Below, piece by piece: positions 35,784-42,110 of a stretch of 64,000 nt of DNA. Numbering within the stretch: the first letter of the stretch is position 1; each line of letters opens with the position of its first letter. The translations under genes were made by a program, and so were the position numbers. Origin of the DNA: Candidatus Latescibacterota bacterium (GTDB lineage: Bacteria; Latescibacterota; UBA2968; GCA-2709665); the NCBI GenBank assembly GCA_965219455.1, contig OZ244744.1, positions 4,192,001 to 4,256,000 of the forward strand, read 5' to 3'. Below the pieces are notes generated by a model that had not been told where the DNA came from, did no database searches, and saw nothing but the letters and a program-made list of their open reading frames with translations.

Positions 35784-35999
35784 CTACTCGCAGCGTACGA
35801 GAGGCCCAGTCCGAAGGCACGACGAACGGAGTTGACTCGTTGCATGCCCTGTGCCGCATCCGATCTCCAGGATTCTTCCATCGTCAGGAATCCCCGATAG
35901 GCATTCGACGCCGCCAATTGGTTCGCCGGGGTACCTGGGCCTGATTTCATCGTAACGGCATGCGACGCTGTCGAAGGTATTTCGTCGAGAGTCGGGCAT
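35784..35999 (-). pseudogene. Truncated class I SAM-dependent methyltransferase (N-terminal fragment)
   Basis: 'TFDSVACRYDEIRPRYP...RILEIGCGTGHAT' followed by loss of similarity and an early stop. Confidence 0.65.
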
Positions 36000-36358
36000 C
36001 GTATTCGTCCTGGCGGTCAGCATTCCAGCTTTATCGATATTCAAGGGTGCTATCGCGTAGCGCCTGGAATTCGAGGGTCTCCCATAATGATGTCCATGAA
36101 CGGGTCCAGGCGGCTCCGGATCTTTGCGACATCCCGAATCGTCACGCGCGTGTGAAAGTTTACGTGGCGGCCGCTGGATAAGATAATTCTCCACAATTGC
36201 AGTGTCAAACTTGGCCAGGCCTATTATCGCTCAAGAGAATGGCTTGACCAGCGACACTTGTGACGCCTTGGAGCGCGCCCGGAATACTCGGGGAAGGGAG
36301 TCTTCGGTCGCGGACCATCAGCGGGACGACTGGTTACGAGGCCGTTGTAGGCGGTACC

Positions 36359-37678
36359 CTACGGGTAGAGTCTTTTGGGCCCTCGATAGACGTACGTGAC
36401 TTCCCGGACGTTGTTGTATCCAAGCAGGATCATGAGCATTCGGGTGAGGCCAAAGCCGAATCCGCCGTGGGGCGGACATCCATATTTGAAAAAGTCCAGG
36501 TAGAACCGGAGCGGTTCTAAACTGAGACCTTTTTTTGCGGCTTGGGCAGCCAGAATTTCAGGGCGGTGTTCTCGCTGAGCGCCGGTGGTGAGTTCCAGGC
36601 CATTCCAAAGCAGGTCGAAGCTCTTTGTGACGGTAGGATCCTCTGGATACCTCATGTGATAGAACGGGCGGACGGATACGGGATAGTCGGTAAGGAAGAC
36701 GAATTCGTGACCGTATGTTTTTTGGATGTATTCGCACAGGATGCGCTCTCCCTGAGGGCACAGGTCGCCCTGTCTTTGTGGCGGGGGCGTGTAACCCAGT
36801 TCCGCTAGTCGGACGACGGCTTCTTCCATGGCGATTCGTGGGAAGGGATAAGCCGGAACGGTGACTTGACGGCCGAAGTGTTCGGCGATTGATTCGCCAT
36901 GGGATTTTTGCACGGCGAACAGTATGTGGCAGAGCCATTGTTCTTCAAAGACCATTAGATCCTCGTGGGAGCGGATCCAGGCAATTTCAACGTCGACGCT
37001 GGTGAATTCGGTGTCGTGGCGCGACGTGAACGAGGGGTTCGCTCTGAAGACGGGGCCAATTTCAAAGACTTTGTCGAAACCGGCAGCCATGGCCATCTGC
37101 TTGTAGAACTGGGGCGACTGAGCGAGGTAGGCTGTGGTGTCGAAATATGGAAGTTCAAAGAGTTCGGCGCCGGATTCGCTTGCGCTGCCCATGATTTTCG
37201 GGGTATGTATTTCGATGAATCCCTCTTGCTCCCAGAAGTTACGCATAGCGGCTTGGACGGTGGTCTGGATCTGGAAGAGCAGATGGTTCTCCGGTCGGCG
37301 CAGATCCAAATGTCGCCAGTCAAGCCTTGGTTCCAGACCGGGTGGATCCTCGCCAAATGGTTCGATAGGTAGTGGTGAGGCCGCCTTGTTTTCGATGTCA
37401 AGTTCGGCCAGTTGAATTTCGATGCCGCCGAGGCGGACGTTTGGATTCTTCACGACGCGGCCAGTGACTCGAACGGCGGATTCACGGGTAAGGGTGGAAA
37501 CTATGATTGCCAGGCCGGGATTCTGTTGTTTTTTGTGGACGACCTGGACCTTTCCCGTGGGATTGCGGAGAATGATGAATTGCATTTGTTTCTGGTCGCG
37601 AATGGTCTGTACCCATCCTCGAAGGGTGACGGTTTGTCCATTGTGATGACTGAGTCGGGGTATGGATATGTTTCTCAT
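36359..37678 (-). CDS. aspS: Archaeal-type aspartate--tRNA ligase (probably non-discriminating Asp/Asn)
   Basis: About 440 aa with no GAD insertion; OB-fold 'LRGWVQTIRDQ', 'YLAQSPQFYKQ', motif 2 'FRANPS..RH..EF', motif 3 'PPHGGFGFGLTR'; AAGGAG RBS. Confidence 0.92.
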   Translation of the reverse strand: MRNISIPRLSHHNGQTVTLRGWVQTIRDQKQMQFIILRNPTGKVQVVHKKQQNPGLAIIVSTLTRESAVRVTGRVVKNPNVRLGGIEIQLAELDIENKAASPLPIEPFGEDPPGLEPRLDWRHLDLRRPENHLLFQIQTTVQAAMRNFWEQEGFIEIHTPKIMGSASESGAELFELPYFDTTAYLAQSPQFYKQMAMAAGFDKVFEIGPVFRANPSFTSRHDTEFTSVDVEIAWIRSHEDLMVFEEQWLCHILFAVQKSHGESIAEHFGRQVTVPAYPFPRIAMEEAVVRLAELGYTPPPQRQGDLCPQGERILCEYIQKTYGHEFVFLTDYPVSVRPFYHMRYPEDPTVTKSFDLLWNGLELTTGAQREHRPEILAAQAAKKGLSLEPLRFYLDFFKYGCPPHGGFGFGLTRMLMILLGYNNVREVTYVYRGPKRLYP

Positions 37679-37722
37679 GTGATAATGCTCCTTTTTTAAG
37701 AGGTCTGAGTTTTCAGGCATGG

Positions 37723-37757
37723 AAAAACCGCCGCTGGTGTGCGACCAACGGCGGGTT
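37723..37757 (-). terminator. Attenuator terminator upstream of aspS
   Basis: Minus strand AACCCGCCGTTGGT-CGCAC-ACCAGCGGCGG-TTTTT; its 5' arm is perfectly complementary over 11 nt to 37796-37806 (antiterminator). Confidence 0.8.
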
Positions 37758-37775
37758 GTGTTTCAGAGTAAGTTT

Positions 37776-37916
37776 TCAGCCATATATCGGCCCGGCCCGC
37801 CGTTGGATAGGGTCATGGTGGTTATTATGGTGGTCGGGATTGACGTCCAGGCATACGGCTGGCGCGAGAGATTTCTGCGGGGTTGTGATGCGGAAGATAG
37901 AACAAGCCATGGTCAT
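37776..37916 (-). CDS. aspS leader peptide, Asp/Asn/His-rich (46 aa)
   Basis: AGGAG RBS, then MTMACSIFRITTPQKSLAPAVCLDVNPDHHNNHHDPIQRRAGPIYG*; the control codons sit immediately 5' of the antiterminator. Confidence 0.75.
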   Translation of the reverse strand: MTMACSIFRITTPQKSLAPAVCLDVNPDHHNNHHDPIQRRAGPIYG

Positions 37917-38077
37917 TGTATTGGTCTCCTGGTTCCGCACATCACCTATTGCCAACATTTACGAATTTAAGGAGTTTTCACGGGCGACACCGAAGCAATG
38001 CTCCGTTGGACGCCACCTTGAGTGTCATGCGCCCGCACTCAGAATACGTCAGAACACGCACAAGGTGCCGGGAAACC

Positions 38078-40526
38078 CTATTGCGCTTCGATGGCCGCCG
38101 TAACGATCTCGCCGTTCAGTATGACGTGAAGGCCGGGATCGAGCGGGTTGTTAAGCACGACGTCTAAATCACGCGCACGCGTGATGCTGGTCAGATCCGA
38201 TTCGGCCTCCTTCAGTGCCAATGAGAGCGCCTGATCATTTACGGTAAGTTGCAGCCGTTTCAGGGGTGCGCTGAGTGAGAGATTGGCGTTGCTCTTGTAA
38301 CGTCGGACCGCAGTGGCGATCTCAACCAGGAGGTTGCCATTTGTTTCGGCGCGTTCGTCTAAAAATCGCGGGTTCACGGACGGCCAGGTGGAGATGTGGA
38401 TGGATTCACCGTTCTCTGCGAACAGTCCAACGTAGATCTCTTCGGTTACGTAAGGCAGAAACGGCGCAAAGAGGTGGATGCAGGTTCGAAGCACGTGGCT
38501 GAGTGTATATTGCGCACCACCGGTTCCGATCCCGGTCTCGTCATACAGACGCCGCTTGGCCATTTCAAGGTAGTTGTCCGCCAGGTCTCGCCAGAAGAAG
38601 GTTTCGGTTTCACTCCTGGCGAGAGCGTATTGATAGTTTTGGAAAAAGCCGGTTGCCCGATCGATAAGGCGTTGTGTCCGCGCCAGGATCCAGCGGTCCG
38701 CGGGGGTCAGGAGTGGAGGTTCGACTGGAGTGCGGTATCCTTGTAGAAACCGTTCGCTGAAGCGGGCCACATTCCAGAGTTTGGTGACCAGTTTGTGACC
38801 GGCCTGGATTCTTTCTTCGCTGATTACCGTGTCTTTGCCGAATCCCGTTCCGGCCGCCCAATAACGCACGGCGTCGGCGGAATATTTCTCGATTATGTCT
38901 ATCGGCGCGGCCGGTCCGCCTCCTCGGCTCTTGCTGATTTTCCCCGTGCCTTCCGGAGCCAGGCCCCATCCGGAAATGCATATTTCCTTCCAGGGTATCT
39001 GTCCAAAATGGTGGTGAGATTTGACAATGGTGTAGAAAGCCCAGGTCCGAATGATTTCGTGTGACTGGGTGCGCATGGACATGGGGTAGACGTCCTGATA
39101 GAGCTCGTTGTCGCATAACCAACCTGCCGCGATTTGAGGACTGAGCGATGAAGTAGCCCAGGTGTCCATAACGTCCGTATCGGCTACCCAATCGTTGGCG
39201 CCGCAAGTACACCTTGCACGCGGGCAGGTTTCGAGCGGGTCCAATGGCAGTTCGGCTTCTGGCGCCACGGTGATCTTACCGCAGCCACCGCAATACCACA
39301 CCGGAAACGGGATGCCAAAATGGCGTTGGCGGGAGATACACCAGTCCCCAGTGCAGGTTTTCGATCCATTCAATGTAACGGGCTTTCATGTGCGGGGGAT
39401 GCCACCTGATATCTTCGCCCAGTTCGAGCCAACGGCTTTTGAAGTCAAGGACACGGATGAACCACTGCGGAGCGACGATGTATTCCACCGGCGTGTCGCA
39501 GCGATCGTGGACCCGAACGGACTGAGGTGCGGGCCGCCTGTCCACCATCAAGCCGCGTTCATCGAGTGTCTTCACGATCTGTCGTCTGGCTTCGGACACG
39601 GAAAGGCCTTCGAGAATGCCGGAACCCGCGGTCATCCTGCCGTTCCTGTCGATGGCGGAGACCAGCGGCAGGTTGTGTGAACGCCACCAGGCCACGTCCG
39701 CAGCGTCGCCGAAGGTGCAGCACATCACAGCGCCCGTGCCTGTTTCGGGATCCGCCCCTGTATCCTGCAGTACGGGCACATGATGGCCATAAAGGGGGAC
39801 TGAGACATTGCGGCCGATGAATGAACTATAGCGTTCGTCACTTGGATGGACGAAAATCGCCGCACATGCGGACAGAAGTTCCGGCCGGGTGGTGGCGATC
39901 GGCAGTGACATGCCCCCTTCAAGGTGGAAGTGCACGGTGACGAATTCACTCTCCCGTTCAATTTCGTTCAGTTCGGCCTGTGCGATTGCGGTTCCGCATT
40001 CCGGGCACCAGATAGCCGGCGCCTTTTTGCGGTAGACCAGTCCTTTGTCTAACAGGTCTATAAATGACTTCTGTGCAATGCGGCGGGCGGTGTCGCCCGC
40101 TGTGCGATAGGTATGTGACCAATCGACCGAAAGCCCCAGGCGAAGCCAGAGGTTCTCGTATTCGCGTTCAATGGCTTCACCGTGGTACATGCATTTTTCG
40201 ATAAACGCCTGACGGCCGAGTCCCGATGCGCTTGTTCCAAGGCGTTTTTCCACCAGGCGTTCGGTGGGGAGACCGTTGTCGTCATACCCCATCGGGTAGA
40301 AGACGCGCCGGCCGTTCATTCGCCAGAAGCGAGCCATGAAGTCGGCATGGCTATAGGAGTAGACGTGACCCATGTGGAGTTTTCCGGACACGGTCGCAGG
40401 AGGCGTGTCGATGGCGTACACGGGGCCTTCGGCCAGCCTTTCGAATTTGTAGATGTCCGACAGTCGCCAGCGCGCCTGAAGGCGAAGCTCTGTTTCCTGT
40501 GGGCGATATCGTTTGGATGAGGCCAT
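38078..40526 (-). pseudogene. valS: Archaeal-type (short) valine--tRNA ligase split by a single +1 frameshift
   Basis: 'IDTPPATVSGKLHMGH' (HIGH), 'DWCISRQR', 'DTWATSS', 'KISKS' (KMSKS); an extra G in TGG-G-GAC (plus-strand CCCC at 39346-39349) breaks ENLHW|DWCISRQR. May be a sequencing error. Confidence 0.88.
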
Positions 40527-40581
40527 TCTGATTCTCCCGGGAGGAAAATTCAACTCTTCGATTCCATAGATTTCGTTCCTC

Positions 40582-40767
40582 TCAACCGTCGAAGACGGCG
40601 AGTTCGAGGATCTTGAAATTACAGACTACATCCTGAAATCCTATCCGCCGCAGCCAATCGCGGTGTACCCTTGCGGCGGCCGGCATATTGGCCTGTTTGC
40701 CCTCCCGGTGGTAATATTCGTAAGCCATCTGTACGGATTGCCGCAATATCCCTTCCCGCCTCACCAT
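40582..40767 (-). pseudogene. C-terminal remnant of a class I methyltransferase
   Basis: 'DWLRRIGFQDVVCNFKILELAVFDG' resembles the C-terminus of small SAM methyltransferases; no SAM-binding motif remains. Confidence 0.45.
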
Positions 40768-40791
40768 CAGAATTCCTTGTAGTGTGAATAC

Positions 40792-40826
40792 AAAAAAAAA
40801 CCGCCATCGAGTGGACTCGATGGCGG
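40792..40826 (-). terminator. Attenuator terminator upstream of valS
   Basis: Minus strand CCGCCATCGAG-TCCA-CTCGATGGCGG followed by T9; alternative pairing partner ATGGCGG at 40865-40871. Confidence 0.85.
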
Positions 40827-40852
40827 GATAATGATTCTCTTCGTTTTCGCTG

Positions 40853-40978
40853 CTATACCATAAGCCGCCATAGGGTCCTATGATTATTGGCCGAATTGAC
40901 ATCGTTTACAGGGCGTACGGCGTCGTCTACACTTCGCGGCAGCGTGAGGTTCAGGAACCGGTGGCTGTTGACGTTCAT
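40853..40978 (-). CDS. valS leader peptide, Val/Asp/Asn-rich (41 aa)
   Basis: MNVNSHRFLNLTLPRSVDDAVRPVNDVNSANNHRTLWRLMV*, lying between a consensus promoter and the terminator. Confidence 0.7.
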   Translation of the reverse strand: MNVNSHRFLNLTLPRSVDDAVRPVNDVNSANNHRTLWRLMV

Positions 40979-41020
40979 GATATTCTCTGTGTTGTAGGTT
41001 TCCGGCATCGAATTCACAAT

Positions 41021-41049
41021 AATATAGAAGACCGTCCCGATGATGTCAA
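41021..41049 (-). promoter_or_regulatory. sigma70-type promoter of the valS-aspS leader
   Basis: Minus strand reads TTGACA-17 bp-TATATT. Confidence 0.7.
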
Positions 41050-41093: not shown

Positions 41094-42110
41094 CTACCCG
41101 CGGCGTTTCCGTCCCCCGGATTTCATTTCATCCAGCTTGGCCTTTTGTTCATCCGTAAGGATGGCGTCGAGGTCATTCTCGAAATCTTCTTTCAATTCGT
41201 GCAGCGTGTACCTGAGACCCGAACGGTCGCCTGACTCCTGAGCACTGTCGATCGCGGATTTAACGTCGGCCTGGTAATCCTCATACAATTCCTTGAGGTC
41301 CGCGATCTGTTGGTCGCTCAGGCCAAGGGAATCGCTCAGTGCGGCGATGTAATTTCCCCGCCCGCTGTCCTTCCTCCGGGAGGTTGCATTGGCCTTGATT
41401 TCCTCGAGTCTGGTCTGTTGCTCGTCCGTGAGGACATCGTTGAAGTCCTCTTCGAATCCCAGTCTCAATTCCTTCAGACTCTCCCGAAGCCCTGTACGGT
41501 CTCCCGACGCTTTGGCGTTATCGATCAGGGCCTTGACGTCGGCCTGGTAGTCATCGTGCAGTTCATTCAGATCCGCGACCTGTTCGTCGCTCAGGCCCAG
41601 CGAGTCGGTCAACGACGCGATGTAATTCTCCCACGCTTTGTCCTTCCTCCGTGCGGCCGCATTGACCTTGATTTCCTCGAGTCTGGTCTGTTGCTCGTCC
41701 GTGAGGACGTCGTTGAAGTCCTCTTCGAATCCCAGTCTCAATTCCTTCAGACTCTCCCGAAGCCCGGTACGGTCTCCCGACGCTTTGGCGCTATCGATCA
41801 GGGCCTCGACGTCGGCCCGGTAGTCTTCATGCAGTGCATTCAGATCCGCGACCTGCTGGTCGCTCAGACCCAGCGAGTCGGTCAGCGCCGCGACATATCG
41901 TTCCCATCCATTGTGGTTCCCGCGCCGAAATTTGCTGTAATTGTCGCCATCAAATTTGGAACCTATCTCGTCCGTGGACGCCTTTGAGGCCTGAGATGAG
42001 CTTTCAGTGGATCCAGTCCCGGTTGGAGACTCGACGGGGATCTTGTTACCGCACCCGAGGAGTGTGAAGGAGACGACGACGGACGTGATGGCAAATCTGC
42101 GAAACGACAT
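41094..42110 (-). CDS. Lipoprotein with three tandem Spy/CpxP-like (LTxxQ) repeats
   Basis: Lipobox LLGC; three ~91-aa repeats 'LGLSDQQ...VLTDEQ'. Confidence 0.8.
   Translation of the reverse strand: MSFRRFAITSVVVSFTLLGCGNKIPVESPTGTGSTESSSQASKASTDEIGSKFDGDNYSKFRRGNHNGWERYVAALTDSLGLSDQQVADLNALHEDYRADVEALIDSAKASGDRTGLRESLKELRLGFEEDFNDVLTDEQQTRLEEIKVNAAARRKDKAWENYIASLTDSLGLSDEQVADLNELHDDYQADVKALIDNAKASGDRTGLRESLKELRLGFEEDFNDVLTDEQQTRLEEIKANATSRRKDSGRGNYIAALSDSLGLSDQQIADLKELYEDYQADVKSAIDSAQESGDRSGLRYTLHELKEDFENDLDAILTDEQKAKLDEMKSGGRKRRG
41120..41900. repeat. Intragenic tandem repeat with a 273-bp period
   Basis: Near-identical DNA blocks starting at 41401 and 41674 (TCCTCGAGTCTGGTCTGTTGCTCGTCCGTGAGG...); the third copy is more diverged. 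Confidence 0.85.

Follow-up and report, generated by a model that had tools for sequence, protein, structure and literature searches.

We analysed a 64,000-nucleotide (nt) stretch of a metagenome-assembled Candidatus Latescibacterota genome (contig OZ244744.1, positions 4,192,001 to 4,256,000; hereafter the window), in which an accessory, archaeal-type gene for aspartyl-tRNA synthetase (aspS, encoding AspRS) follows a short translated leader and an intrinsic terminator on the minus strand. Comparison with related genomes indicates that this region is, at its core, very probably a ribosome-mediated transcription attenuator. Our favoured explanation of the whole, to which we assign a probability of roughly 0.55, is that Asn and Asp codons would act as hungry codons controlling the accessory AspRS, with an arrest motif near the end of the leader peptide that would park the ribosome over the antiterminator arm.

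All of the elements listed in a preliminary description of this DNA, namely the ribosome-binding site, open reading frame (ORF), codon run, arm, terminator and aspS, were found in place on the minus strand, to which the coordinates below refer. A Shine-Dalgarno AGGAG (37926..37930) stands 9 nt ahead of the ATG (37916) of the leader ORF (type 2; 37776..37916), which comprises 46 codons and then TGA (37778..37776). Its translation, MTMACSIFRITTPQKSLAPAVCLDVNPDHHNNHHDPIQRRAGPIYG, starts MTMACS and ends DHHNNHHDPIQRRAGPIYG at the stop. A run of control codons, GAC CAC CAT AAT AAC CAC CAT GAC, encodes D-H-H-N-N-H-H-D (37812..37835) and is followed by the peptide motif P-I-Q-R-R-A-G-P (37788..37811), identified from the codon table and from an alignment of relatives; it contains the SecM-type arrest core RAGP, at which the ribosome may stall. 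Codons of I-Q-R-R-A also form the antiterminator arm CCAACGGCGGG (37806..37796), the exact reverse complement over 11 nt of CCCGCCGTTGG (37755..37745), which is the 5' arm of the intrinsic terminator (37723..37755; 3' arm 37738..37728). The terminator hairpin (37754..37728) has 11 pairs, 8 of them G-C, and is followed by TTTTT (37727..37723). The aspS ATG (37678) lies 44 nt past this T run, with a Shine-Dalgarno AAGGAG at 37693..37688.

Eight straight Asn, Asp or His residues have a probability of ~3e-8 per codon position, given that 11.6% of the residues in a proxy proteome of the genome are N, D or H. Against chance over six frames of 5.8 Mb, the run alone is borderline, and what we regard as decisive for the leader is that the whole arrangement is conserved in relatives. 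When the genome was scanned crudely for terminators preceded by a short ORF with an amino-acid run, 16 matches were obtained, the aspS leader among these; the sole other match followed up, with five Thr, was rejected as a leader because it sits within a coding region. The scan, which is insensitive, found no other classical attenuator in the genome. Rfam has no family for the leader region, and a search of 36000..41000 at E up to 10 returned three weak, unrelated matches.

The distribution of the archaeal-type aspS is patchy, with an ortholog in 28 of 168 Latescibacterota genomes. Besides the window's genome, the spare gene occurs in 7/21, 18/31 and 2/3 genomes of three families and in 0/112 of eleven others. 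In the comparison with related genomes that the preliminary description had proposed, the translated leader, its control codons, the terminator and the mutually exclusive antiterminator are kept ahead of the orthologous aspS, in 25 of the 28 genomes. At these 25 loci the upstream short ORF ends I-(Q/R)-(R/Q)-R-A-G-P, a terminator follows, and the ORF shows synonymous variation; the conserved frame at the orthologous loci compared is the leader frame and not the +1 frame. One genome (L068) has no leader, and its aspS comes directly after another gene. Two others (L018 and L071, from one genus) have a broken aspS, and in both the motif is degenerate (IRRWRPP and IRRRRHP).

We also searched one genome for each of 185,579 species with a degenerate DNA pattern for [D/N/H/Y]-[D/N]-P-I-[Q/R/H]-R-R-A-G-P. 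Of 32 stretches found, 19 are leaders, all in Latescibacterota-type metagenome-assembled genomes (MAGs), although two of these are labelled otherwise, one as Gemmatimonadota and one simply as 'bacterium'. At 18 of the 19 loci there is an aspS match, which lies downstream of the leader wherever the sequence was inspected. The remaining 13 stretches were rejected as chance occurrences, nine in ORFs of at least 119 amino acids in GC-rich genomes and four in shorter ORFs, and none is followed by a terminator or aspS. A scan of the window's own genome for RAGP, RAPP or RAPG leaders followed by terminators listed 75 candidates, among which the aspS leader alone had the architecture described here; the others were judged from the printed list to be chance matches in GC-rich frames. 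The same kind of pattern scan in metagenomes gave 11 stretches, comprising one true leader (contig L113), two other short ORFs and eight members of an unrelated protein family (L104-L108, L110, L111 and L114), rejected because the N-terminus of the family, M-A-D-D-N-N-P-I-R-R-R-N-F-L-M-G-A-G, matches coincidentally at DDNNPIRRR. This N-terminus resembles a twin-arginine signal peptide.

Several of these loci have peculiarities of their own. In L044, the one locus of the 19 with no aspS match, an intact leader and terminator are followed by an opposite-strand ORF and a transposase-like ORF (TnpB/OrfB-like by eye) and not by aspS, which seems to have been displaced. L042, the record labelled Gemmatimonadota, encodes the same leader peptide, and its aspS has the same identity to the query as that of L004 (genome G010); G010 is placed in the window's Latescibacterota genus, and the submitter's phylum label of L042 may be wrong. 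Extra elements of ~75 nt (L005, L014 and L064) or ~200 nt (L007 and L019) lie between terminator and aspS; motif and aspS are 172-175 or 309 nt apart in L005, L014, L064 and L007, compared with the usual 91-110 nt. These inserts resemble miniature repeat elements.

In an alignment of 18 distinct leaders (A1), eight of them from one genus (g6), both stems covary, a point that the preliminary description had proposed to test in relatives: compensatory changes keep both helices paired. In the terminator helix, 96.5% of cells are paired and five pairs are changed on both sides, and none of 500 shuffles scored as high. The antiterminator helix has 90.3% of cells paired, with three pairs changed on both sides, compared to 25-56% in controls slid by 1-3 columns. 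One position covaries across all three strands, being G-C-G in one group and A-T-A in the other. The duplex of the arm with the 5' half of the terminator is worth -17 to -25 kcal/mol at 15 intact loci, and the terminator hairpins -16 to -22.5 kcal/mol. In folds of the window's own sequence with the arm free, the antiterminator was both the minimum free energy and the centroid structure (-32.2 kcal/mol); with the arm left out, the terminator formed (-25.5 kcal/mol, z -2.6). Cognate and non-cognate pairs of arm and terminator were only moderately separated in a cross-lineage duplex matrix because the arms are all similar, and we relied on the column counts instead. Leaders of genus g6 have a local hairpin enclosing the arm, and no equivalent that might serve as a protector (region-1) hairpin is conserved across the genera compared. 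The two helices are predicted to be mutually exclusive, with availability of the antiterminator set by the position of the ribosome in the leader ORF.

The control codons are less uniform than the helices, and the codon table shows a run dominated by Asn and Asp in eight genera of three families, in a proxy proteome where N is 3.1% and D 5.9% of residues. The run is N-N-N-D-D-N-N in g6, g11 and the metagenome contig L113, N-P-N-D-D-N-N in g3 (L015), N-N-N-D-N-N in g4, N-H-N-D-D-N-N in g7 and N-S-N-F-D-N in g12. The window's genus (g1) and its sister g2 have DHHNNHHD, DHNNNHHG, NHNHNDHN, YNDNNNHN and DHNNDEHN. The preliminary description had proposed to test conservation of the D/N/H run, which holds for the Asn and Asp codons and fails for His. 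The ancestral run is N-N-N-D-D-N-N. Runs of six genera (g3, g4, g6, g7, g11 and g12) and of L113 contain no His or one, and multiple His residues occur in g1, g2 and L016 (g3); His, a single base change from Asn or Asp, is thus derived and prominent only there. Asn outnumbers Asp in most leaders, which would fit an enzyme valuable chiefly for supplying the GatCAB-dependent formation of Asn-tRNA when free asparagine or the activity of AsnRS (asparaginyl-tRNA synthetase) fails.

The preliminary description did not notice the C-terminal P-I-(Q/R)-R-R-A-G-P shared by every intact leader. In A1, codon positions 1 and 2 of I, Q/R, R, R, A, G and P are invariant and the third positions vary: Ala is encoded by GCC, GCA, GCG and GCT, Gly by GGG, GGA, GGC and GGT, and Pro by CCG and CCA. 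This pattern of codon use indicates selection on the motif at the amino-acid level. Conservation of Q/R-R-R is over-determined because the same codons form the RNA arm; A-G-P lies outside the antiterminator helix. The Pro codon is the last to be conserved: from there up to the terminator no column is invariant, the following residue varies among I, N, K, W and A, and the stop comes after another 1 to 4 codons. L016 is an exception, its next in-frame stop lying 57 codons further, and there the frame passes through the terminator into aspS. By analogy, this is the conservation pattern expected of an arrest peptide.

R-A-G-P is the C-terminal arrest core of SecM, according to passages of PMC10987492 and PMC12992588. 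The first of these also reports that Bacillus subtilis YwcI stalls at RAGP, the P site then being occupied by the Gly codon, and that the substitution P91A abolishes the stall, and the second that the Arg is irreplaceable and that RAGP is strongly avoided, being among the most avoided tetrapeptides in bacterial proteomes. In our proxy proteome, RAGP was observed 26 times versus 61.9 expected, the lowest ratio of all XAGP and RAGX tetrapeptides; the ratios for RAPP and RGPP are 0.34 and 0.30. The leaders have 29-46 residues with no long hydrophobic segment seen by eye. The neighbouring gene that the sec/yidC-context test for arrest peptides looks for is absent, aspS standing downstream in its place. 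We consider it an even question whether RAGP has a real arrest function here.

In the mechanism that we infer, the leader RNA would adopt one of two alternatives, the 11-bp antiterminator formed by the arm in the ORF and the 5' half of the terminator, or the terminator itself. When Asn-tRNA or Asp-tRNA is scarce, the ribosome would stall in the first codons of the N/D run, upstream of the arm; the arm, left exposed, would pair with the emerging 5' half of the terminator, and RNA polymerase would read into aspS. With plentiful charged tRNA, the ribosome would move on to R-A-G-P and be held; its P site would then contain the Gly codon (37793..37791) and its A site the Pro codon (37790..37788). 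Ribosome profiling places the edge of the ribosome footprint ~13 nt upstream of the P site. A ribosome held at RAGP would cover 37806..37796, which is exactly the arm, and the terminator would form and transcription stop. By the same geometry, a ribosome that had advanced to the stop codon, with its P site at 37781..37779, would leave the arm uncovered. Because a ribosome at RAGP would cover the arm, the arrest motif may take over from the stop codon the role of parking the ribosome and thereby holding basal read-through down.

In passages of a modelling study by Elf and Ehrenberg (PMC1183508), the basal read-through of an attenuator is set by release of the ribosome before the terminator forms, and two ways to avoid this are named; an arrest motif would be a third. 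One leader of 29-46 residues would then have two stall sites with opposite outputs, Asn/Asp starvation giving antitermination and RAGP arrest giving termination as an OFF brake, a proposal that we think could equally well prove right or wrong. Conceivably, the N/D segment might have two roles, its codons being the hungry codons of the mRNA and its residues providing the context for arrest within the tunnel.

A second attenuator, missed by the preliminary description, appears to precede an accessory valS (valyl-tRNA synthetase) gene located just upstream of aspS in the same operon. This leader (type 1) is rich in Val, Asn and Asp. Its ORF of 41 codons (40853..40978, minus strand), MNVNSHRFLNLTLPRSVDDAVRPVNDVNSANNHRTLWRLMV, has a Val/Asp/Asn-rich stretch at 40930..40880, and its antiterminator arm CCTATGGCGG (40865..40874; codons L-W-R) lies three codons before the stop. 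The intrinsic terminator (40792..40826) consists of a hairpin (40826..40801) and nine T (40800..40792). The arm pairs with the 5' half of the terminator in duplexes of -17 to -25 kcal/mol in four genomes. A promoter-like TTGACA-17-TATATT (41021..41049), read from the sequence as a sigma-70 consensus match only, stands ahead of it all, giving the order promoter-like site, valS leader, terminator, methyltransferase remnant and spare valS.

The valS leader is kept in four of the five valS-carrying genomes examined, the window's and three others of its genus, with 4 to 7 Val codons, mostly GTA, in addition to Asn and Asp codons. In the window, GTA, at 13% the least used codon for Val, accounts for three of the four Val codons. 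Three genomes without valS (L015, L016 and L069) have two attenuators in tandem directly before aspS, and the first leaders in genomes without valS are N-rich with no Val run (one Val, none within the N-rich stretch). Because first leaders with no valS downstream lack the Val run, the control codons track the gene regulated; of the comparative arguments for codon sensing, this is the strongest. In the valS leader the stop comes three codons past the arm, and a terminating ribosome would cover most of the arm, as in ordinary stop-codon parking. The two leaders of this genome may therefore reach the same geometry by different means, since the arm would be covered through the position of the stop in the one and through RAGP in the other. 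The parking geometry is less regular in some other first leaders.

Several observations weigh against the favoured explanation, either at the level of the attenuator or at that of the arrest. The whole-leader fold is not unusually stable (z -1.1), and the shuffle controls overstate the support because the sequences are related, 8 of the 18 rows coming from one genus; the robust compensatory positions in the antiterminator number two. A scan of the region up to 41000 revealed no promoter in the interval from valS to the aspS leader. In one metatranscriptome, with 6% of words, four contigs of a relative, 90-95% alike, cover parts of valS only. The broken-gene control is one lineage, and the His codons of the window's genus stay unexplained. 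As for the arrest, Q/R-R-R is explained by the RNA arm, so that only P-I and A-G-P need a peptide-level reason. The tetrapeptide alone is no proof, because the proteome still holds 26 copies of RAGP, and arrest is not required by the attenuator design, because the type-1 leaders lack RAGP. Finally, most RAPP-like or RAGP-containing proteins tested in Escherichia coli or B. subtilis do not stall, the upstream context being decisive, as stated in a passage of PMC10987492.

The likeliest rival is an ordinary hungry-codon attenuator responding to Asn- and Asp-tRNA, with no true arrest, in which the terminator would win by kinetic coupling when charged tRNA is replete. The motif would then be an RNA arm with at most a mild Gly-Pro slow-down, or reflect an unknown constraint. 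All support for the attenuator core counts equally for this rival, the type-1 leaders show the same architecture with no RAGP, and most proteins that contain RAGP do not stall (PMC10987492). It has more difficulty with the A, G and P codons, which lie outside the helix and yet keep positions 1 and 2 invariant, with all four third bases in use, across eight genera; with conservation that ends exactly at Pro; and with the one genome that has no stop before the terminator. We hold it to be possible, if rather unlikely.

Codon starvation would be dispensed with altogether in an arrest peptide that senses a metabolite, as TnaC and SpeFL do, with free Asn or Asp in the exit tunnel inducing the RAGP stall and thereby termination. 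Cofactor-dependent arrest peptides exist (passages of PMC12992588), and RAGP adjoins a polar N/D segment that at arrest would lie near the tunnel constriction. However, the N/D segment varies freely in the window's genus, with H, Y and E substitutions, and the N/D- and Val-rich runs of the sister leaders without RAGP match the downstream gene, as codon sensing predicts. We consider this alternative improbable.

Two further ideas, both put forward in the preliminary description, concern the His codons, and neither is supported, because these codons occur almost only in g1 and g2. One was that they are a relic of a hisS-aspS operon, a gene order known from Firmicutes. In this genome, hisS is directly upstream of the housekeeping, bacterial-type aspS (G000:C1:5338490-5341532), 1.1 Mb from the window's aspS; it has a short 5' region with a good sigma-70-like promoter, and no leader ORF was found in that 5' region. 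The other, which we rate as very improbable, was that the run senses not Asn/Asp charging but the decoding of NAY codons by queuosine-modified GUN tRNAs (Asp, Asn, His and Tyr). All eight codons are indeed NAY in four of the five g1/g2 leaders, L004 being the exception with a single GAA. His codons occur in these runs, a Tyr codon in one of them, and tgt is present in the genome. Against this, the six other genera have N/D runs with no His or one. Moreover, queuosine sensing is not needed, because non-NAY codons (GAA, TCC, TCG, CCG, TTC and CGC) interrupt the run in several other lineages. The regulated gene charges tRNA-Asp and probably tRNA-Asn, and the valS leader follows the logic of cognate codons. 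That the region has no regulatory role, being a chance small ORF before a terminator that merely ends the valS transcript, draws on the missing promoter and the unremarkable full-leader fold, but it has a negligible probability and is already contradicted by the comparative data, as leader and terminator are also present in genomes without valS (genus g6, for example), the ORF is kept at the amino-acid level, and arm and terminator covary.

Returning to the hungry-codon attenuator with arrest, the gene that it would control (36359..37678, minus strand) encodes a protein of 439 amino acids scoring 481.5 bits against NCBIfam NF003483 (cut-off 353) and lying above the curated cut-offs of two NCBIfam aspartate--tRNA(Asn) ligase equivalogs, NF003483 and TIGR00458. 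This agrees with the earlier suggestion that sensing of both Asp and Asn codons would suit the enzyme. Among solved structures, the protein is closest to archaeal AspRS (3nel/1b8a) and to the non-discriminating Thermus AspRS2 (1n9w), and the accessory AspRS is probably non-discriminating. In the alignment with 1b8a, Gln and Asn occupy the positions that would correspond to Trp26 and Lys85 of the discriminating archaeal enzyme, a tentative assignment of which we make no use. The genome also contains a bacterial-type AspRS, AsnRS, gatB, an asnB-type asparagine synthetase and a canonical valS. The window's aspS is thus a spare copy, since a bacterial-type AspRS and AsnRS are present, and the PRK13208-type valS just upstream is a spare copy as well; the tRNA-dependent route is not the sole way to Asn, since there is also the asnB-type enzyme.

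Only in this genome does a frameshift near 39346 split the accessory valS (38078..40553, minus strand) in two, giving ORFs that overlap (40553..39276 and 39373..38078); in four relatives the gene is a single frame. At 39346, related-strain contigs in three runs lack 1 nt, and an exact-match contig (run X2) agrees with the window. Either valS has recently become a pseudogene here, or the frameshift is a base-calling error that the source data share. In the fifth valS-carrying genome (L074, G017), a transposase-like ORF occupies the place of the Val-rich leader, and no first attenuator was seen there. Pieces of a class I S-adenosylmethionine-dependent methyltransferase flank valS-aspS on the minus strand: a C-terminal piece (40582..40790) between the first terminator and valS, and an N-terminal-like piece (35784..36194) downstream of aspS. 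A full-length methyltransferase of 245 amino acids lies directly upstream of the aspS leader in several g6 genomes. By its gene order, the valS-aspS locus has evidently been rearranged. Directly upstream of the promoter-like site of the valS leader, a 338-amino-acid, predicted lipoprotein-like ORF (41094..42110, minus strand) contains three near-identical repeats of ~95 residues rich in LTDEQ and DSLGLSD motifs.

Classical leader-peptide attenuators include trpL, hisL and pheM-pheST of E. coli, the last of which regulates an aminoacyl-tRNA synthetase. With these the aspS leader shares a short translated leader, a cluster of cognate codons, mutually exclusive antiterminator and terminator, and a terminator just before the gene, and judged by sequence it thus has these features by which the ribosome-mediated class is recognised. 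It differs in that its control codons are those of Asn and Asp, that the arm lies inside the ORF upstream of RAGP and not at or after the stop, that we found no consistent region-1 protector hairpin, and that two attenuators stand in tandem or flank valS. In Streptomyces coelicolor, trpRS1, an auxiliary tryptophanyl-tRNA synthetase gene, has a ribosome-mediated attenuator and is induced when charging of the cognate tRNA fails. There too the attenuator serves an accessory synthetase copy, albeit for a different amino acid and in a different phylum; to our knowledge, the trpRS1 leader has no arrest-type motif. T-box riboswitches, in which uncharged tRNA causes antitermination and more synthetase through a terminator/antiterminator switch, follow the same physiological logic, whereas the aspS leader would sense charging through translation of a conserved ORF and not by direct tRNA binding; the Rfam search of 36000..41000 gave no match to a T-box covariance model. 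Thermus and Deinococcus have an archaeal-type AspRS2 with GatCAB beside bacterial AspRS and AsnRS, and the present genome likewise has a second, archaeal-type AspRS beside the bacterial AspRS and AsnRS, with GatB present. Unlike in that comparison, it also has an asnB-type asparagine synthetase, and charging of tRNA-Asn is here a prediction.

In its ending, the leader resembles SecM, YwcI and the RAPP-like (RQH) peptides, as described in passages of PMC10987492 and PMC12992588: a C-terminal R-A-G-P, conservation ending at Pro, a short ORF upstream of a regulated gene, and a tetrapeptide depleted in the proteome. Unlike SecM and YwcI, the gene downstream is a synthetase and not sec or yidC, and arrest would here be the OFF state, through termination. 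No pulling force could release the aspS leader, given that its 29-46 residues have no evident signal or membrane segment. The main text of PMC12992588 contains none of the terms tRNA synthetase, attenuat-, terminator or leader peptide; the supplementary lists of RAPP-like upstream ORFs of both papers might hold synthetase cases. Our literature searches turned up neither an Asn/Asp leader nor an attenuator of an archaeal-type aspS, and no account of synthetase regulation in Latescibacterota; one paper lists a predicted, uncharacterised 'tRNA synthetase leader' structure ahead of a Shewanella aspS. An earlier description of a SecM-like stalling motif in such an attenuator was likewise not found.

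If our explanation is true, this would be the first leader-peptide attenuator keyed to Asn and Asp codons, our literature searches having given no earlier description, and also the first described for the gene of an archaeal-type AspRS, in a phylum that is uncultured and has hardly been studied. The element is small and self-contained. We know of no report of a natural arrest-based solution to early ribosome release. That design problem, release of the ribosome before the terminator forms, was raised by the modelling study (PMC1183508, in the passages noted above). The ending in RAGP suggests that arrest sequences of the RAPP-like kind, so far known mainly for monitoring secretion, may also have been recruited to set the basal level of an attenuator. 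For the organism, the finding would tie regulation to the physiology of duplicated synthetases, with the spare valS-aspS pair switched on by the tRNAs that it serves.

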